Source of the DNA: a virus
DNA: 30,503 nucleotides
UHGV virus genome: UHGV-0123901
Reading direction: 5' to 3' (one strand)
The position numbers and the translations under genes were made by a program. The first letter of the stretch is position 1. Every line of letters begins with the position of its first letter. This document shows positions 18,605 through 27,139 of this stretch, in pieces. Below the pieces are notes generated by a model. The model did no database searches. It was not told where the DNA came from and worked only from the letters and a program-made list of their open reading frames with translations.

Positions 18605-20377
18605 ATGACCATCACCACAGACACCACTCTTTTACACGACCCGCGTCGTCAGGCGGCGCTGCTGTACTGGCAGGGGTTTTCCGTGCCGCAGATTGCCGCC
18701 ATGTTGCAGATGAAACGCCCGACGGTGCAGAGCTGGAAACAGCGCGACGGCTGGGACAGCGTTGCCCCCATCAGCCGTGTCGAAATGAGTCTGGAAGCGC
18801 GGCTGACCCAGCTCATCATCAAACCGCAGAAAACCGGCGGTGACTTCAAGGAAATTGACCTGCTCGGACGCCAGATTGAACGACTGGCACGGGTCAACCG
18901 TTACAGTCAGACCGGCAACGAGGCAGACCTTAATCCGAACGTCGCTAACCGCAACAAAGGCGGGCGTCGCAAACCGAAAAAGAATTTTTTCAGTGACGAG
19001 GCCATCGAAAAGCTGGAGCAGATTTTCTTTGAGCAGTCTTTCGAATATCAGTTGCACTGGTATCGCGCCGGGCTTGAGCACCGCATCCGCGATATCCTGA
19101 AATCCCGCCAGATTGGCGCAACGTTTTATTTTTCCCGCGAGGCGCTGCTGCGCGCCCTGAAAACCGGTCATAACCAGATTTTTCTGTCGGCCAGTAAAAC
19201 GCAGGCGTATGTGTTCCGCGAATACATCATCGCCTTTGCCCGGCTGGTTGACGTTGACCTGACCGGTGACCCGATTGTCCTGGGCAATAACGGCGCAAAA
19301 CTGATTTTTCTCGGCACCAACTCCAACACCGCACAGAGCCATAACGGTGACCTGTACGTCGACGAGTTTTTCTGGATCCCGAATTTTCAGGTACTGCGTA
19401 AGGTGGCATCAGGTATGGCCTCACAGAGTCACCTGCGCTCGACCTATTTCTCCACCCCGTCCACGCTGGCGCACGACGCCTATCCGTTCTGGTCGGGTGA
19501 ACTGTTCAACCGGGGACGCGCCAGCGCCGCCGAACGCGTGGAAATCGACGTCAGTCATAACGCCCTTGCCGGTGGGCTTCTCTGTGCGGACGGCCAGTGG
19601 CGGCAGATTGTCACCATTGAGGACGCCCTGAAAGGTGGCTGCACGCTGTTCGACATTGAGCAGCTTAAACGCGAAAACAGCGCCGACGATTTTAAAAACC
19701 TGTTCATGTGTGAATTTGTTGACGACAAGGCGTCGGTATTCCCGTTCGAGGAGCTGCAACGCTGCATGGTCGACACGCTGGAAGAATGGGAAGACTATGC
19801 GCCGTTTGCCGCGAATCCGTTCGGCTCCCGTCCGGTCTGGATTGGTTACGACCCGTCACACCGTGGCGACAGCGCCGGATGCGTGGTGCTGGCACCGCCG
19901 GTGGTGGCCGGTGGCAAATTCAGAATACTTGAGCGTCACCAGTGGAAAGGCATGGACTTTGCCACTCAGGCGGAATCCATCCGCAAACTCACCGAAAAAT
20001 ACAACGTCGAATACATCGGTATTGATGCCACCGGCCTCGGTGTCGGCGTGTTCCAGCTCGTGCGCTCGTTCTATCCCGCCGCGCGCGATATCCGCTACAC
20101 GCCGGAAATGAAAACCGCAATGGTGCTCAAGGCAAAAGACGTTATCCGCCGTGGCTGTCTGGAATATGACGTCAGCGCCACCGACATCACCAGCTCGTTT
20201 ATGGCTATTCGCAAGACCATGACCAGCAGCGGACGCAGCGCCACCTATGAGGCCAGCCGCAGCGAGGAAGCCAGCCACGCCGACCTCGCCTGGGCGACCA
20301 TGCACGCCCTGTTAAATGAGCCACTCACCGCCGGTATCAGCACCCCGCTGACATCCACCATTCTGGAGTTTTACTGA
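18605..20377 (+). CDS. P: terminase large (ATPase) subunit (P2 gpP-like)
   Basis: 590-aa product starting MTITTDTTLL with a GAGG RBS upstream; its stop overlaps the Q start (TGATGA). Confidence 0.9.
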   Translation: MTITTDTTLLHDPRRQAALLYWQGFSVPQIAAMLQMKRPTVQSWKQRDGWDSVAPISRVEMSLEARLTQLIIKPQKTGGDFKEIDLLGRQIERLARVNRYSQTGNEADLNPNVANRNKGGRRKPKKNFFSDEAIEKLEQIFFEQSFEYQLHWYRAGLEHRIRDILKSRQIGATFYFSREALLRALKTGHNQIFLSASKTQAYVFREYIIAFARLVDVDLTGDPIVLGNNGAKLIFLGTNSNTAQSHNGDLYVDEFFWIPNFQVLRKVASGMASQSHLRSTYFSTPSTLAHDAYPFWSGELFNRGRASAAERVEIDVSHNALAGGLLCADGQWRQIVTIEDALKGGCTLFDIEQLKRENSADDFKNLFMCEFVDDKASVFPFEELQRCMVDTLEEWEDYAPFAANPFGSRPVWIGYDPSHRGDSAGCVVLAPPVVAGGKFRILERHQWKGMDFATQAESIRKLTEKYNVEYIGIDATGLGVGVFQLVRSFYPAARDIRYTPEMKTAMVLKAKDVIRRGCLEYDVSATDITSSFMAIRKTMTSSGRSATYEASRSEEASHADLAWATMHALLNEPLTAGISTPLTSTILEFY

Positions 20378-21411
20378 TGAGCAAGAAAAAAGGGAAAACA
20401 CCGCAACCTGCGGCAAAAAAAATGACCGCCAGCGCCCCGAAAATGGAGGCATTCACCTTTGGTGAGCCGGTGCCGGTACTCGACCGCCGTGACATTCTGG
20501 ATTACGTCGAGTGCATCAGTAATGGCAGATGGTATGAGCCACCGGTCAGCTTTACCGGTCTGGCAAAAAGCCTGCGTGCTGCCGTGCATCACAGCTCACC
20601 GATTTACGTCAAACGCAATATTCTGGCCTCGACATTTATCCCGCATCCGTGGCTTTCACAACAGGATTTCAGCCGCTTTGTGCTGGATTTTCTGGTGTTC
20701 GGTAATGCGTTTCTGGAAAAGCGTTACAGCACCACCGGTAAGGTCATCAGACTGGAAACCTCACCGGCAAAATATACCCGCCGTGGGGTGGAAGAGGATG
20801 TTTACTGGTGGGTGCCGTCCTTCAACGAACCGACAGCCTTCGCGCCCGGCTCCGTGTTTCACCTGCTGGAGCCGGATATTAATCAGGAGTTGTACGGCCT
20901 GCCGGAATATCTCAGCGCCCTTAATTCTGCCTGGCTGAATGAGTCGGCCACGCTGTTCCGCCGAAAGTATTACGAAAATGGCGCACATGCCGGATACATC
21001 ATGTACGTCACCGATGCCGTGCAGGATCGCAACGATATCGAAATGCTTCGCGAAAACATGGTGAAGTCGAAAGGCCGCAACAACTTTAAAAACCTGTTTC
21101 TCTACGCCCCACAGGGGAAAGCCGACGGCATTAAAATTATCCCGCTCAGTGAAGTGGCAACGAAGGACGATTTTTTTAATATCAAAAAAGCCAGCGCCGC
21201 TGACCTGCTTGACGCGCACCGCATCCCCTTTCAGCTGATGGGTGGCAAGCCGGAAAACGTCGGGTCGCTGGGCGATATTGAGAAAGTGGCAAAGGTCTTT
21301 GTCCGCAATGAGCTTATCCCGCTACAGGACAGGATCCGCGAGATAAACGACTGGCTCGGTCAGGAGGTCATCCGCTTTAAAAACTACTCACTGGACACTG
21401 ACAACGGCTGA
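20377..21411 (+). CDS. Q: portal protein (P2 gpQ-like)
   Basis: 344-aa ORF adjacent to cos. Confidence 0.9.
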   Translation: MSKKKGKTPQPAAKKMTASAPKMEAFTFGEPVPVLDRRDILDYVECISNGRWYEPPVSFTGLAKSLRAAVHHSSPIYVKRNILASTFIPHPWLSQQDFSRFVLDFLVFGNAFLEKRYSTTGKVIRLETSPAKYTRRGVEEDVYWWVPSFNEPTAFAPGSVFHLLEPDINQELYGLPEYLSALNSAWLNESATLFRRKYYENGAHAGYIMYVTDAVQDRNDIEMLRENMVKSKGRNNFKNLFLYAPQGKADGIKIIPLSEVATKDDFFNIKKASAADLLDAHRIPFQLMGGKPENVGSLGDIEKVAKVFVRNELIPLQDRIREINDWLGQEVIRFKNYSLDTDNG

Positions 21412-21748: not shown

Positions 21749-22549
21749 CTATTTCATCAGTCCTATAAAAGCTGCTGTCATGCTACCCAATGCACCAATA
21801 GCAGCAAATAACGTTGCCCAAAACATGCTTTTTTGGCTACGAATATTCTCATTATATCGTTGTTCTTCATTATTGAAGTGATTTAACGTATTAATTGCTT
21901 TTCCGGTGGGCTTATAACCATCTCGAGTCTTTGAAATGTCCCCACTCTCTACAAGGGAATCCAGACATAAGCGAAGTTCTTTTATGAGTCGAGAATAATC
22001 ATCATGGTAGATCCATAAACGTCCTGCCACATCATTCATAATTAGAGTCTCCCTGAATGGTTTTTCCCCTTGCTGCTCTCGATAAATTCTGACAATTGCA
22101 GCCAATACCGTCATTACATCAGTTATCTCCTGCTTGCGTTGTCGATACAAATACTTCTCACGACTTAGCTTTTTATTTTGACGATCCGCTATTCTTCTAA
22201 ATCTAAGTACATTAAAATAAGATAAATCATCCAATGAGTCAAACTTCAATTCATGCGCATGATAATAATAAATTCCAGAAAAGGAATTTGATGTAAGTCG
22301 TTCTGGTTTAAGAATTGTATCAATATTGAAAGTTTTATTCTGATGACTCCACTTCTTAACCTTTATAATTCCGTTTGAATAACTATCAAAAAGATAGTCA
22401 TTACCCTCATCATCCTTAATGTAAACGGAATACATATCGTAATGAATGGCACTCTCATACATTAAACTAATTCTGCCATTTTCAGGAGTCTTCTTTGACT
22501 CAAAAACTTTCAGAAACTTTACAACATCAACTTTATTTTTATGCCTCAT
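21749..22549 (-). CDS. hypothetical protein with single C-terminal hydrophobic helix; candidate effector of the RT module
   Basis: 266-aa ORF in AT-rich cargo DNA, 165 bp downstream of the RT gene on the same strand; C-terminus MFWATLFAAIGALGSMTAAFIGLMK; no domain recognised by eye. Confidence 0.6.
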   Translation of the reverse strand: MRHKNKVDVVKFLKVFESKKTPENGRISLMYESAIHYDMYSVYIKDDEGNDYLFDSYSNGIIKVKKWSHQNKTFNIDTILKPERLTSNSFSGIYYYHAHELKFDSLDDLSYFNVLRFRRIADRQNKKLSREKYLYRQRKQEITDVMTVLAAIVRIYREQQGEKPFRETLIMNDVAGRLWIYHDDYSRLIKELRLCLDSLVESGDISKTRDGYKPTGKAINTLNHFNNEEQRYNENIRSQKSMFWATLFAAIGALGSMTAAFIGLMK

Positions 22550-22714
22550 ACATTCAGCCTTGACTGTAAACCACCATATTAAATGATTGCACTAACGACT
22601 CGTACTACTTATTGTTCAACCCAGTCAGAACTGAAAGCAAACTTTTGCACTAACTGGGTTGCCATCATAATATATCGATACTAATAAAATCCGATATTAT
22701 TATATTTTAGTGTA

Positions 22715-23665
22715 TTAAACCGATGTATTTGCTTTCAACGTCAATACTTTCGATCTATAACGTTTTTCAATAACCCCCATTGAATATAAACGACCAAATA
22801 ATTTCTTTGCTGTTCTTGTATCTTTAGCTTGTTCTACATCTTTTATTATTTTCCAAAGCTCTATTTCTCTAGCCATAAGATAATGCTGTTCGTTCCTAAC
22901 CTTTAAGCTATCCCCAAATACTATAACTCCTGTCACTAGTTTAGGCTTATCCCCAGCATATAATTTCGTTTTAGTTGGATGCATAGCGTGTCCATGCTTA
23001 TTAATAATCTTACGAATCACGCTGCAAAACAATCGATTTACATTATCTCCAGAAAAAGTAAGATCATCGACATAAACTGTCATTTTCACACGAAACTTCT
23101 CACAAAGTTGATTCATTTCATCAAACATTCTGGAATTTGCAAAATATGCTAATGGCATACTAATCCGACTACCCGTTGGCAATCGTTCATGACAGGTACA
23201 TATATGAGATAAAATATCAGCCACATCTGGCGACATTTTCATTATTGAGAAAAAGAAAGAAAATATCATTTCTCTTGTTGTTGACGGAAAAAAAGATCTA
23301 ATATCTGTAGTCATCAACTTCTGATGATTGAGATGTGCTTTAGCATTTGTTATGTTAGAGCAACTTTTTTTACCAGAGTGTAAATATTCGGGCATAGCTA
23401 TACGCAATAATAAACTCGCAATACGTGTATGCACTACATCTAATTTTTCTAAAGGCTTTTGTATTTTCCGTATTTTATTTTTTTTAGAAAGCTGTTCAAA
23501 AATAGAGTAATTACCCTCATCCCTTTTCAAAACTGATAGGTCATTGATACTAACGCAGAGCAAGCTAGCCAACTTTTTTTTACTTTTAAGTTTATAAAGT
23601 GGCGAATCCGTAATAGGATAAGATTTATTTTTAGTTGAAACCTTCAGCTTAATCCTTTTTTTCAT
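22715..23665 (-). CDS. reverse transcriptase, retron-type
   Basis: 316-aa ORF with NAKAH...DIRSFFPS (NAxxH and finger motifs), LPTGSRISMPLAYFAN (motif B-like), VYVDDLTFSG (YxDD catalytic motif C) and KLVTGVIVFG (the VTG triplet typical of retron RTs). Confidence 0.85.
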   Translation of the reverse strand: MKKRIKLKVSTKNKSYPITDSPLYKLKSKKKLASLLCVSINDLSVLKRDEGNYSIFEQLSKKNKIRKIQKPLEKLDVVHTRIASLLLRIAMPEYLHSGKKSCSNITNAKAHLNHQKLMTTDIRSFFPSTTREMIFSFFFSIMKMSPDVADILSHICTCHERLPTGSRISMPLAYFANSRMFDEMNQLCEKFRVKMTVYVDDLTFSGDNVNRLFCSVIRKIINKHGHAMHPTKTKLYAGDKPKLVTGVIVFGDSLKVRNEQHYLMAREIELWKIIKDVEQAKDTRTAKKLFGRLYSMGVIEKRYRSKVLTLKANTSV

Positions 23666-23963
23666 TTCTTTTACTTACCCACTCTAGTATATCCAGAACT
23701 TTCCCTGCCAGTTTTAAACGTAAACTTTTGGATAATCGTCCTTGTGTCCCTAATGATTCTGAAAAAAAGACCAAAGAGGATACTGGCATGTCGAAATGGG
23801 AAGCATAACGCTGTAAAATATCAATCGACGGCACCCATAGTCCGCTTTCAATCTCTACTATTCTGCTTTTTGGAATACCTAAAGATGATGATAAGTCAAC
23901 TATTGATTCTTTATGGTATTGCCTTATTAAACGAAGGGCTTTATGCAACATAGGCAACTCCAT
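23649..23963 (-). CDS. XRE-family helix-turn-helix protein, translationally coupled to the RT gene
   Basis: 104-aa ORF with HTH signature SIVDLSSSLGIPKSRIVEIESG; its stop overlaps the RT start by 17 nt. Confidence 0.6.
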   Translation of the reverse strand: MELPMLHKALRLIRQYHKESIVDLSSSLGIPKSRIVEIESGLWVPSIDILQRYASHFDMPVSSLVFFSESLGTQGRLSKSLRLKLAGKVLDILEWVSKRNEKKD

Positions 23964-23987
23964 CTTGTTGAAACTAGGGAGGACGCA

Positions 23988-24143
23988 TTACTCATCTCCC
24001 CCTTCAAAGAAGTCAACTGCGCGAGTGATCCAATAAAGTAGTCTAATAAGCCACTTAATTACACCCCAAGCGTTAGGAGTCTTCTTTTTCCGGTTTAACT
24101 TGTTTTGCGCCTGCTGTTCGTTGGTTACTTTATCATTTTTCAT
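23988..24143 (-). CDS. small hypothetical protein (51 aa) with hydrophobic segment; may instead be non-coding
   Basis: AAGGAG RBS 6 nt before the ATG (MKNDKVTNEQ...), hydrophobic AWGVIKWLIRLLYWITRAV; a longer 97-aa upstream extension seems less likely. Confidence 0.3.
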   Translation of the reverse strand: MKNDKVTNEQQAQNKLNRKKKTPNAWGVIKWLIRLLYWITRAVDFFEGGDE

Positions 24144-24245
24144 GATCTGCTCCTTATGTCCACGGTGTGCAAACGATATGTCTGCTCCAGCACCATGGCT
24201 CGCCCTCATAAGGATGAGATTGAACAGCACCAGCTCCCTGCTCCA

Positions 24246-24272
24246 CGAACCCTTTGTCGCCCAAAGGGTTCG
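24246..24272. repeat. perfect 11-bp stem hairpin (cgaaccctttg / caaagggttcg, 5-nt loop)
   Basis: Read directly; not followed by a T-run on either strand, so not an obvious terminator. Confidence 0.5.
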
Positions 24273-24585
24273 AATACCCATACGCTATGCCGCGTGAATC
24301 AGAGACTCCTGTCGCTGACAGAGGCGTTGCGCGGGGTAAATGTTAGAAAGCATTAGCTTTCCACGGGCAATAAATACCCAATTGATGGCGATTTATCTCA
24401 CTAACTAACCAATGATTGAATCATACCAAGTAAACCGTTGTATTTGATCTCTCCTTATATAATTTTTTGTTATTAAACAACATAAATGAATAACAAAATG
24501 AAATAAAACTAATCTTCATCCGTCTCATCACAAGAAATATCAACAAATCAAGAATATCGTTTGATTATCTAGTCTTTCCAATTCA

Positions 24586-26874
24586 TTAAAATAAAAACAA
24601 TGCTTCATCTTCAATTCCCGGCCAAACATCAGCAACCGGATACGTGAATTTTTTCCCGTCATAATTTACAGTTGCTCCACGCGCCAGCGCCTCAAGTTCC
24701 CATCGCTGCGGCCTGATACCGTTCTGAGCAAGGTCAACGCGGATACGGGTAATTTGCATTCGTTCCGACCGGGTCAGCCTGGCTGATGGAGCTATTTCAT
24801 GCGGTTTTAACGGGCTTCCGTTTCTTTGCTGACGGTTTGGTGTTCTCAGGTCGTGTTTTAATGCGCCCCTGAGCGCCCTCACGACCTCCGGGTCATTCCA
24901 TTCGATAACACCATCATCAACCAGATTAAGCACTGCTGCGGCGTGCTCAGAAGGCGTGGGAGCCGGTAACGAAGTATCACCACCGGTGAGCTTTCCACAG
25001 TTATTGACAGGACTCCGAGGCGCGGCGATGCCGCTTTTTAAAGTCAAAGGCTCCACGACCGGAACTTTCGGCACAATGCGCCAGTCCGTCGTTCTGGTGA
25101 TATGAATATGACGCGCGCCGAGATGTGGCGCGTAAATGCCGACCACTCTCTCGACTTCTTCCTCGTACTCGTTAACTTCATCCGACGGGCTACGGGCGAC
25201 TCTGACAGTCTGGCAATCGCGCGGAACGTTTGCCCCACCCTGCGCACTGATATACAACGCAAAATCGCCACTGTCTGCGGCAGCGCGTGCAGCCTCGACG
25301 CGTTCGTCAAACTCATCAGCAATGCTGACGCCGCGAGGCAATTTGCGTAGTTCACGGTAAGCCCCCATTGTCGGCAGACCAACCGTTTTAAATTGCGGGA
25401 TGCGCCACGTTGACGCCCATGCAGTAACAGCCGCGGCAGTATCTTTCAGAGGTCTGCCGGTATCGTTATCGAGCTGACCATCCAGTGCATAGCCGTCGAT
25501 GTTTTTTGAGATGTATTTCGCGATATACCCCGCAGCACCGCCCCGATTAAGGTGTTTTGCCTGAAAACGGTTTCGCGCGGCTCCTCTTTCGTCGCCATCC
25601 TCTTTGAGCGCATAGCGACGCATGATTTCAATAATCTGGTTACGCTGGCGTGGATTACAAAAAAGCATCATATGCCAGTGCGGCGTTCCGTCGTGGTGTG
25701 GTTCAACAACACGCAAACCGTAGACCTGTAAATCATTATCCTTGAATGCCGTGCGCATCAGGCTCCAGATACGGCAGAGATAACGCTGCGCATCCTTTGG
25801 ATTAAATGCCTCATCGTTCCAGCCGTGATTAAGCTGCACGGTTTTACTTTCGCCTTTTCCGACCTGACGTGTCGGGTGATACTTTGACGGCGCGGTCAGC
25901 GTGATAAACATCCCCACATCACCCTCTGCAGCGGCGTAACGCTCAATACCGGCAATGGTGTTCATCAGCTCCATCCGGCGAATTTCAGGATTAGAAATAC
26001 TTCCCATCACCTTACTGATAAGGTCGATGCGCTCGCCGGTTTCCCTGTTTTCAAGGTCACACGATTTAAGAAATTCCAGATTTGCCTGGCGGCGTGCACG
26101 CACATCACGAATGGCATGTTTACTGGCATAAGGAGAACGGTCTTTATTGACTTCCCCGACAGCTATCAGTAACGCCTCATGCCAGCGCATACGCTGGCCT
26201 TTAAGCTGATGAGTCCACCACTCATCGTTAAACAGACGGGCAATGGCAGAATATGCCTGCCTCGTGGTCATCTGCCCTTTACGGTATTTTTTCCAGTAGA
26301 GAGGGGAAATATTGAAAGCACGTGCAGCGCCAGCAACATGACCATACAGGTGAGCCTGCGCCTCATCCGTAAACAGCGATTCTTTTTCGCCATGCGCATC
26401 CACCCAGGCATCGCTGAGTTCCTCATACATCATGAAAAGCTGCGATGAGATACGGGCAGCAAACTTTTTCAGCTCCTTGTCATTCATTCCCGGCAGGCGC
26501 GCATAGTGGTCACGCTCTGCCAGAAACAGTAACGACGCGTCGGTGTTCATTTCATGGCGCTGATTCACACGCTCAATGCGCGGCCATAAACGACGCTGAA
26601 AAGTGGATGTGAGGAAATAAAACCCGTGCACCGGGCTTTTATTGCGCCGGATGTAGTCATAGCGTGAAGTAAACAGCGAGCGCAAAAAGTAAGGCAGGCG
26701 GTTAATCGTGGATAAAACACCTTGCACCTGACGCATCTCGTCACGTGTAAGGGGTCTTTCGCGCCCGACAGCCTCGCGTGGCGCGTTCCATGCATAAGCA
26801 CCGGTAAACGCCTTACCGGTGCCTGCGGCAAATGCTGACGGAGGGACAAAACGCCCGGAGGCTTTAACGGCCAT
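24586..26874 (-). CDS. A: rolling-circle replication initiator (P2 gpA-like)
   Basis: 762-aa product starting MAVKASGRFVPPSAF (internal start of the 776-aa ORF), matching the P2 A N-terminus. Confidence 0.9.
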   Translation of the reverse strand: MAVKASGRFVPPSAFAAGTGKAFTGAYAWNAPREAVGRERPLTRDEMRQVQGVLSTINRLPYFLRSLFTSRYDYIRRNKSPVHGFYFLTSTFQRRLWPRIERVNQRHEMNTDASLLFLAERDHYARLPGMNDKELKKFAARISSQLFMMYEELSDAWVDAHGEKESLFTDEAQAHLYGHVAGAARAFNISPLYWKKYRKGQMTTRQAYSAIARLFNDEWWTHQLKGQRMRWHEALLIAVGEVNKDRSPYASKHAIRDVRARRQANLEFLKSCDLENRETGERIDLISKVMGSISNPEIRRMELMNTIAGIERYAAAEGDVGMFITLTAPSKYHPTRQVGKGESKTVQLNHGWNDEAFNPKDAQRYLCRIWSLMRTAFKDNDLQVYGLRVVEPHHDGTPHWHMMLFCNPRQRNQIIEIMRRYALKEDGDERGAARNRFQAKHLNRGGAAGYIAKYISKNIDGYALDGQLDNDTGRPLKDTAAAVTAWASTWRIPQFKTVGLPTMGAYRELRKLPRGVSIADEFDERVEAARAAADSGDFALYISAQGGANVPRDCQTVRVARSPSDEVNEYEEEVERVVGIYAPHLGARHIHITRTTDWRIVPKVPVVEPLTLKSGIAAPRSPVNNCGKLTGGDTSLPAPTPSEHAAAVLNLVDDGVIEWNDPEVVRALRGALKHDLRTPNRQQRNGSPLKPHEIAPSARLTRSERMQITRIRVDLAQNGIRPQRWELEALARGATVNYDGKKFTYPVADVWPGIEDEALFLF

Positions 26875-27139
26875 ATGAGCCAAAAGCCTCTGAACAACGC
26901 TTGCTGAGTTGCTCAACCTGCGCGTTTAAATCAGCAAAAGACTTTGCGCTTCCGGTCAGAATATCGTGATGCATCAGGCCGGAAACGAGCTGGCTTAATT
27001 TCGGGTAATAACCAACCACCGCCAGCCATTCCTGACCGGCATTTTTACCGCTTTCCGCTCTCTTTTTCTCGTGGAGAATAAACTGAAAGCTGTCACTGGT
27101 AACGACATAACGTTCGCCAATTTCGATACGAATACTCAT
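26864..27139 (-). CDS. hypothetical early protein (P2 orf83 position)
   Basis: 91-aa ORF in the operon-packed block between B and A. Confidence 0.55.
   Translation of the reverse strand: MSIRIEIGERYVVTSDSFQFILHEKKRAESGKNAGQEWLAVVGYYPKLSQLVSGLMHHDILTGSAKSFADLNAQVEQLSKRCSEAFGSYGR

Follow-up and report, generated by a model that had tools for sequence, protein, structure and literature searches.

A Type VI Retron of an Escherichia coli P2-like Prophage: a Leader with an Embedded Putative Toxin Gene as Its Probable Hybrid RNA

Introduction

The virus genome UHGV-0123901, whose full stretch of 30,503 nucleotides (nt) is called the window below, is an Escherichia coli P2-like prophage that carries on its minus strand a retron reverse transcriptase (RT) gene preceded by a helix-turn-helix (HTH) gene, and the question that it raises is where the RNA template of this RT is encoded. 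The original prediction for this locus looked for a separate msr-msd RNA flanked by a1/a2 inverted repeats, took the leader upstream of the HTH gene as the best candidate, and suspected that the small open reading frame (ORF) called there, at 51 or 97 amino acids (aa), was spurious. From a comparison of the leader with its relatives we conclude, with a probability of roughly 0.85, that it serves a Type VI retron of the Retron-Vpa2/Retron-Eco12 lineage as its hybrid RNA (hyRNA).

In Retron-Vpa2 of Vibrio parahaemolyticus, a hyRNA of ~470 nt unites msr-msd with the gene of a small-protein (SP) toxin, whose translation is repressed, and inverted repeats let the 3' end of the RNA anneal back (Zhang et al., bioRxiv 10.1101/2025.10.22.683967). 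Its multicopy single-stranded DNA (msDNA) appears only on triggering, with 63 nt that span a long stem-loop and, 5' of these, a 23-nt extension folding into another stem-loop, and is necessary, and in trans sufficient, for SP translation (bioRxiv 10.1101/2025.10.22.683967). A conserved 7-nt direct repeat lies both in the msd loop at the msDNA 5' end and in the riboregulator loop, and the HTH protein represses reverse transcription (bioRxiv 10.1101/2025.10.22.683967). In Retron-Sen3 (cl2075 lineage) the SP belongs to another family, single-stranded DNA (ssDNA) is constitutive, control is post-translational and the HTH protein is an antitoxin (Garcia-Rodriguez et al., bioRxiv 10.64898/2026.04.27.721009).

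Results

A Conserved Leader Precedes a Type VI Reverse Transcriptase

The retron comprises the following parts:

22715-23665, minus strand: retron RT, 316 aa, with an intact YVDD motif (PADLOC RT_VI, 1.4e-105; Pfam RVT_1)
23649-23951, minus strand: HTH gene of Cro/C1 type, 100 aa from its corrected start (PADLOC HTH_VI, 2.5e-31)
23988-24143, minus strand: SP gene, a predicted small-protein toxin of 51 aa, MKNDKVTNEQQAQNKLNRKKKTPNAWGVIKWLIRLLYWITRAVDFFEGGDE (RefSeq WP_016233353.1; PHROG 15287, 1.1e-34)
23965-24413, minus strand: structured hyRNA, with probable ends

The RT_VI and HTH_VI matches on the minus strand identify the system as a Type VI retron. The RT_VI profile was covered at 278 of 279 positions, the PADLOC runner-up being RT_III-A (1.3e-44), and the residues Y198-V199-D200-D201 are invariant. 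In the classification of Mestre et al. (2020) the RT falls in the Type VI clade, and a Cro/C1-type HTH gene (cluster cl2_1) lies upstream of and overlaps it, the HTH ORF and the RT start sharing 17 nt. Identity with the Vpa2 proteins is 52% for the RT (P0079) and 47% for the HTH protein, the latter alignment running from M5. The HTH gene probably starts at the ATG at 23951 (MLHKAL...) and not at 23963: RefSeq uses the former, the Vpa2 HTH aligns from there and a GGAG stands 6 nt upstream, whereas the ATG at 23963 is not kept in relatives. With this start the 3' boundary of the leader moves 12 nt further down.

Relatives were gathered through RT homologues and searched by nhmmer with either the noncoding block of the window or a profile of 12 Enterobacterales leaders. 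There was a single match in the window (24148-24414, minus strand) and matches in 23 further loci from Klebsiella, Enterobacter, Serratia, Yersinia, Dickeya, Xenorhabdus, Providencia, Vibrio and Shewanella, each of them directly upstream of a small ORF, an HTH gene and an RT gene. One of these, L094, encodes the published Vpa2 SP (apart from gaps in the table text) and is therefore the Vpa2 locus; the homologous hairpin, repeats and inverted-repeat arms are present in it. Altogether, ~450 nt of the minus strand (~24413-23965), close to the length of the Vpa2 hyRNA, are kept upstream of the SP, HTH and RT genes in more than 35 loci, Retron-Vpa2 among them. Leader columns are less variable than the SP coding sequence (mean ~0.09 vs. 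0.16), and the 517 nt from 23964 to 24480 fold with a minimum free energy of −164.8 kcal/mol (z = −4.85).

A covariance model, R1, built from the part between the hairpin and the Shine-Dalgarno (SD) sequence with the structure supplied by hand, likewise matched the window once (24140-24274, 132 bits) and scored 101 bits at the Vpa2 locus. Outside its seed it found 8 genome loci and 11 divergent metagenome loci (21-43 bits), and in 8/8 of the non-seed genome loci the match ends at the SP start codon. Rfam gave no relevant match at the gathering threshold over the whole window or at E ≤ 10 on 22500-24600.

The module occurs in P2 prophages, in a Dickeya defence island and on Vibrio and Providencia chromosomes, and the genes 3' of the RT vary from locus to locus; the mobile unit is thus leader-SP-HTH-RT. 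This variation bears on the 165-bp spacer downstream of the RT (22550-22714), the second place where the original prediction would have had a covariance-model or folding scan look for the retron RNA. The spacer folds somewhat better than its shuffles (z = −2.5) and holds an inverted repeat, a 12-bp hairpin at 22617-22661, but outside the 99%-identical E. coli lineage no Type VI locus has it; it gave no nhmmer, model or Rfam match, and it adjoins genes that differ between loci. We therefore give almost no credence to the spacer as the retron RNA; of the two regions it is 23964-24585 that returned a covarying fold and the 132-bit match. The spacer may be regulatory for the downstream gene; its 12-bp hairpin is imperfect, and a direct repeat, TTGCACTAAC, occurs at 22587 and 22645.

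The Consensus Fold Joins the Leader to the Small-Protein Gene

From 5' to 3', the hyRNA comprises two small stem-loops, a long stem and a hairpin (which together would be the template), a riboregulator, the SP gene, and an inverted repeat (IR2) folding back on its partner (IR1). The elements are as follows:

24364-24380, minus strand: stem-loop 2 (UGGGUA...UGCCCG), with a compensatory change of GGG/CCC to GAG/CUC in Dickeya and UBA5654
24345-24362, minus strand: stem-loop 3 (GGAAAGC...GCUUUCU), 100% paired and highly conserved
24275-24338, minus strand: long stem with a conserved, paired base and a hypervariable tip (24295-24320) that differs in sequence and length
24246-24272, minus strand: the hairpin of the original prediction, a covarying stem of 11 perfect bp with a 5-nt loop
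24234-24245, minus strand: IR1, UGGAGCAGGGAG, an a2-like arm directly 3' of the hairpin that pairs with IR2
24222-24229, minus strand: 5' arm, UGCUGUUC, of a helix into SP codons 9-11, covarying with these codons
24207-24214, minus strand: anti-SD, UCCUUAUG, pairing with CAUAAGGA at 24151-24158
24160-24198, minus strand: stem-loop between anti-SD and SD, with strong covariation
24150-24158, minus strand: SD region of the SP gene, CAUAAGGAG, sequestered by the anti-SD in the consensus fold
24112-24119, minus strand: 3' arm, GAACAGCA, formed by SP codons E9-Q10-Q11 and pairing with 24222-24229
23969-23981, minus strand: IR2, just past the SP stop codon, pairing with IR1

We evaluated this fold in two alignments, an RNAalifold consensus on 12 Enterobacterales sequences (A3) and a model-fitted alignment of 30 sequences (A5). 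In A3, 96.1% of cells were paired, compared with ~42% when the partners were slid, and 25 pairs changed on both sides, compared with 5-9 in the slid controls; neither value was reached in any of 500 shuffles. In A5 all 31 pairs changed on both sides. Stem-loop 3 (GGAAAG...CUUUCU) is present in nearly all loci, Vpa2 included. RNAalifold on a trimmed fragment running from the hairpin to the SD gave a poor fold, because the MAFFT alignment had displaced the hairpin arms and the fragment lacked the long-range partners.

Three helices tie the leader to the SP gene and its surroundings. IR1 and IR2 covary across 27 loci (e.g., UCGAGACGGGGG/CCCCUUGUUUCGA and AAAACGAGGGG/CCCCUUAGUUUU). The helix into SP codons 9-11 also covaries over 27 loci (UGCUGAUC/GAUCAGCA, UGCUGGUU/AACCAGCA, CUGCCAAAAAC/GUUUUUGGCAG and others), and its pairing is retained even where the encoded motif turns from EQQ to FWQ. 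Because the conserved E/D-Q-Q motif near the SP N-terminus coincides with this helix arm, 24112-24119 is constrained as RNA and as protein alike. The anti-SD:SD helix is invariant in Enterobacterales, takes the form CUCUGUAAU/AUUACGGAG in Vpa2 and has 8/8 pairs that change on both sides in the 30-sequence alignment. In the stem-loop between its two arms, compensatory changes affect 7 of 14 pairs among the 12 Enterobacterales and 14 of 14 in the model alignment.

The locus thus has each part of the Vpa2-like hyRNA architecture, namely an msr-msd-like arm, an arm with the ribosome-binding site and start codon, an SP-coding arm, an annealing 3' end and the 7-nt repeats. What was expected to be a separate msr-msd between a1 and a2 gives way to a different arrangement, since IR1 and IR2 enclose the riboregulator and the SP gene. 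The original prediction located the retron RNA correctly, on the minus strand upstream of the HTH gene, and picked its functionally central hairpin, which is conserved and covarying; where it erred was in setting the RNA apart from the ORF, as the two form one hybrid unit.

The Small Open Reading Frame Is a Conserved Gene

The frame of 51 codons is present without insertions or deletions in 12/12 aligned Enterobacterales, despite ~35% amino-acid divergence, and its start, SD and stop are kept in all of them; codon position 2 varies least and position 3 most. Across the loci positive with the covariance model the SP is 47-55 aa long, and an SD-preceded ORF of 37-65 aa stands at the same position in nearly all Type VI loci scanned, in most of them with a polar, basic, hydrophobic-aromatic and then acidic pattern. 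The window SP matches the Vpa2 SP by BLASTP at 5e-07 and, as in the Vpa2-like ("Large") group, its gene lies upstream of the HTH gene and is predicted to encode a hydrophobic C-terminal helix.

The 97-aa ORF (23988-24281) contains the 51-aa version nested within it, from an ATG at 24143. Its additional 46 codons have no codon periodicity and suffer out-of-frame insertions and deletions, and in 5/12 relatives the frame runs into a stop codon after no more than 4-21 codons. With no coding signal in the extension and a conserved 51-aa frame, the 97-aa ORF is an artefact over RNA and the 51-aa ORF a real gene for a predicted SP toxin, so that the earlier suspicion of a spurious ORF applies to the extension and not to the gene. 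Public annotation is inconsistent, giving 51 aa in RefSeq/PGAP, 97 aa in PHROG 5826 and 130 aa in Peduovirus P2_2H1, where the call (L095, 2521-2913) runs across the structured RNA. We recommend that the small ORF stay at 51 aa, not 97 or 130, and that the HTH start be corrected.

If the leader were instead a purely non-coding msr-msd and the small ORF a chance reading frame, a structured, conserved RNA would be expected here, as is found, and the 97-aa ORF and the 130-aa P2_2H1 call do over-extend across that RNA. The 51-aa frame, on the other hand, keeps its length, start, SD and stop throughout the 12 Enterobacterales; distant loci carry equivalent ORFs of 47-65 aa with the same charge and hydrophobicity pattern; and in Vpa2 the SP is toxic, the retron losing its toxicity when the SP gene is given a stop codon (bioRxiv 10.1101/2025.10.22.683967). 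We regard a leader devoid of coding function as very improbable.

The Hairpin Carries One Copy of a 7-nt Repeat and Probably Ends the Template

On the minus (RNA-sense) strand the hairpin at 24246-24272 reads CGAACCCTTTG-GGCGA-CAAAGGGTTCG. It is exactly as first described, and nowhere else in the window does a perfect 11-bp stem enclose a loop of 3-8 nt; block shuffles expect 0.04 such hairpins per window. In agreement with the original prediction it is not a terminator: there is no T-run after the stem, and no terminator-like site occurs on either strand of 23964-24585. Just one more hairpin of the window combines a perfect stem of 10 bp or longer with a short loop; it lies inside replication gene A (26798-26822, 10 bp, 5-nt loop).

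Among the 30 distinct sequences, 9/9 consensus pairs of the helix change on both sides with 100% of cells paired, and relatives have stems such as GAACCC/GGGTTC, GCAACT/AGTTGC, GCGACT/AGTCGC, GAAGCA/TGCTTC and GAACCT/AGGTTC. The perfect 11-bp stem of the window is the consensus stem of 9-10 bp extended by one base. The loop is conserved while the stem varies, and contains the first of two repeat copies:

24256-24262, minus strand: first 7-nt repeat copy, GGGCGAC, in the hairpin loop
24199-24205, minus strand: second 7-nt repeat copy, GGGCGAG, in the riboregulator internal loop beside the anti-SD:SD helix, corresponding to the published repeat

The second copy is kept as (G)GGCGA[AG] in nearly all model-positive loci inspected. 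The copies agree even where both have changed (GGACGAA in Vpa2, GGUGAU in L017), and differ from each other in one lineage (L114/L120). The short CTGCTCC repeats of the original prediction are there too, three within 98 nt (24147, 24182 and 24238) and nine in the window against 3.4 expected. As functional repeats these CTGCTCC/GGAGCAG heptamers were rejected, given that relatives keep nothing of them beyond the copy in IR1 and the SD's GGAG; it is GGGCGA that is the functional repeat.

Given the homology to Retron-Vpa2 and the fitting lengths, the msd template most likely has the hairpin at its 3' end, and the hairpin would become the 5' stem-loop of the msDNA. The long stem at 24275-24338 would be the main body of the template; it stands where Vpa2 has the "long stem loop" that 63 nt of its msDNA cover. 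In Vpa2 the long stem with its flanks measures ~57 nt and the hairpin 27 nt, compared with 63 + 23 = 86 nt of reported msDNA. For the window, the predicted msDNA is the plus strand of about 24246-24338, or ~90 nt, and this complementary-DNA (cDNA) sense strand folds as two DNA stem-loops (z = −5.4).

A Third Element Matching the Repeats and Two Further Long-Range Helices

The 5' part of the leader contributes two additional helices, here called i and ii:

24395-24399, minus strand: 5' strand of helix i, GAGAU, pairing with AUCUC at 24216-24220
24216-24220, minus strand: 3' strand of helix i, AUCUC, with covariation
24387-24391, minus strand: 5' "anti-repeat" UCGCC, complementary to both 7-nt repeat copies

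Over 26 loci, helix i takes the forms GAGAU/AUCUC, GGGAU/AUCCC, AGGAU/AUCCU and GGGAG/CUCCC, and helix ii, in which UCGCC pairs with GGCG(A) of the second repeat, is 100% paired. Together they are 98.3% paired, compared with 32-52% when slid, and 5/9 pairs change on both sides. The anti-repeat and both repeats change jointly (UCGUC/GACGA/GACGA in Vpa2, UCACC/GGUGA/GGUGA in L017). Helices i and ii flank the anti-SD, cross each other and cross IR1:IR2, which implies a pseudoknot or alternative conformers.

The anti-repeat has the same sequence as the loop of the predicted msDNA hairpin. We tentatively suggest that the resting riboregulator could be clamped by this RNA mimic of the msDNA loop and that msDNA would activate translation by competing for GGGCGA, an idea that we hold to be possible but doubtful. 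Three-way covariation between the 5' element and the two repeats offers a concrete hypothesis on the switch that is open to mutagenesis.

Proposed Mode of Action and Its Main Alternative

If the window retron acts as Vpa2 does, the HTH protein would restrain reverse transcription at rest and the SP would stay untranslated, until phage recombination or anti-RecBCD functions let msDNA accumulate. The loop of the msDNA 5' hairpin, GTCGCCC, is complementary to the second repeat (GGGCGAG, 24199-24205); their pairing would open the SP gene's ribosome-binding site, and the SP then made would stop the growth of the infected cell. Trigger, opening of the switch and toxicity are here transferred from Vpa2.

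The main alternative is that the same parts work in the manner of Sen3, with ssDNA and SP both constitutive, the HTH protein neutralizing the toxin post-translationally, loss of RecBCD activity freeing it, and the RNA structure serving recognition by the RT and not control of translation. Sen3 is likewise an enterobacterial Type VI retron with an SP-HTH-RT order and an IR1-IR2 framework around its SP gene, and the HTH gene of the window, which is adjacent and has an ORF overlapping the RT start, is placed as in toxin-antitoxin modules. Against this, the window SP is of the Vpa2 type (51 aa, BLASTP 5e-07) and does not belong to the 79-aa cl2075 type, conservation together with covariation is seen in the anti-SD:SD helix and in both repeat copies, and the E. 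coli relative Retron-Eco12, like Vpa2, lacks basal msDNA (bioRxiv 10.1101/2025.10.22.683967). We consider the Sen3 mode unlikely for this locus. Membership in the Sen3/cl2075 lineage itself, raised by close RT matches in Yersinia and Salmonella, is ruled out by the SP type: in place of an SP of ~79 aa with a polar N-terminal extension and an amphipathic C-terminal helix, the window has a Vpa2-like one of 51 aa that is unlike the cl2075 sequences of Sen3, Yersinia and Xenorhabdus in Table S3.

Several points weigh against assigning the leader to a Vpa2-like hyRNA. The locus is known here from its sequence alone; the two repeat copies of the window are identical at 6/7 positions, not 7/7; a conserved branching G next to IR2 was sought and none identified; model-fitted alignments such as A5 are biased towards the structure they are given; and the placement of the hairpin at the msDNA 5' end draws on published text descriptions and on lengths. 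In addition, Sen3, also of Type VI, works otherwise, through constitutive ssDNA and post-translational control (bioRxiv 10.64898/2026.04.27.721009), so that mechanism varies within the type.

Promoter and Prophage Setting

The transcript would start near 24413, as judged from a promoter-like sequence just upstream of the leader, and the neighboring prophage genes are as follows:

24420-24428, minus strand: putative extended −10 promoter element, TGGTATGAT, with TGnTAnnAT at the same place in 12/12 Enterobacterales leaders
24586-26916, minus strand: replication gene A (Pfam Phage_GPA, 7e-124)
21749-22549, minus strand: ORF of 266 aa directly 3' of the RT (PHROG 7611, unknown function, 9e-146)
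20377-21411, plus strand: portal gene of the P2-like prophage

The element in the window has no −35 hexamer and was not called by a simple promoter scan; distant loci have TTGACA-17-TATAnT at the equivalent relative position. In eleven of these loci (L010, L013, L015, L017, L105, L107, L109, L112, L114, L115 and L124) a palindrome, GTTCGC-N5-GCGAAC, stands by the hyRNA promoter, either ~20-60 nt upstream of TTGACA or overlapping it, and is a plausible candidate for an HTH operator in distant Type VI retrons. No operator of this kind was found upstream of the window promoter, where the 157 nt are AT-rich and not kept even between E. coli alleles.

The retron occupies the variable spot between gene A and the portal gene, which lie 3.3 kb apart. 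Ten complete E. coli genomes carry this 3.3-kb cargo at 99% identity, and many others, O157:H7 included, have cargo alleles that are ~84% and ~80% identical, so that at least three alleles of the retron exist in E. coli (~99%, 84% and 80% DNA identity to the window). In one 99%-identical copy (E. coli strain E2, NZ_CP195953.1; L001, 1816-2767) the annotation gives the RT gene a frameshift, with leader, SP and HTH all intact, an interesting natural variant if SP control needs the RT. The 266-aa ORF has a hydrophobic C-terminal segment and matched nothing in Pfam, PADLOC or NCBIfam or by phage tblastn; a homologue of 38% identity lies 3' of the retron in Acerihabitans arboris (L004, 3889-4638), and the gene is absent from the other loci.

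Comparison with Known Retrons

That a toxin gene can reside inside the RNA template of reverse transcription and be switched on by the cDNA has already been reported in two preprints, and what the present locus contributes is an example from nature, in E. coli/P2, along with comparative support; it establishes no new principle. Rfam has no Type VI retron leaders, and their annotation is inconsistent; the model built here detects them across Gammaproteobacteria, in P2-like prophages as well as chromosomal islands.

The window retron shares some features with a canonical msr-msd (Ec86/Eco1; Rfam msr, RF00170), namely a structured RNA by the RT, a stem-loop template and an inverted repeat abutting the template 3' end. 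The canonical layout, in which the msr model matches, a1 and a2 flank the RNA and a branching G follows a1, was not found: the window has no Rfam match, its leader yielded no conserved branching G, and the a1-like arm lies ~250 nt downstream, beyond the embedded toxin gene. In contrast to canonical retrons, msDNA in the Vpa2 model activates the toxin and does not neutralize it.

With Sen3 the locus has in common the SP-HTH-RT order, an upstream structured non-coding RNA, IR1 and IR2 around the SP gene and an RNA constraint on the SP coding sequence; Sen3 differs in its 79-aa SP with an N-terminal extension, its constitutive ssDNA and its post-translational control.

The closest correspondence is with Retron-Vpa2. 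Both loci have the order structured leader, SP, HTH, RT, with SPs of the same family and the HTH and RT identities given above, and homology extends to the hairpin, the two 7-nt repeats, the sequestered SD, IR1/IR2 and the helix into SP codons 9-11. Unlike Vpa2, which has been studied by experiment, the window retron is described from DNA sequence only; it lies in an E. coli P2-like prophage, has GGGCGA instead of GGACGAA as its repeat, a perfect 11-bp hairpin stem with a 5-nt loop, a different sequence at the tip of the long stem, and an SP of 51 aa rather than 55 aa. Within E. coli, the Vpa2 relative Retron-Eco12, also of Type VI, defends against lambda-vir and has no detectable basal msDNA (bioRxiv 10.1101/2025.10.22.683967). 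The window retron may be Retron-Eco12 or an allele of it.

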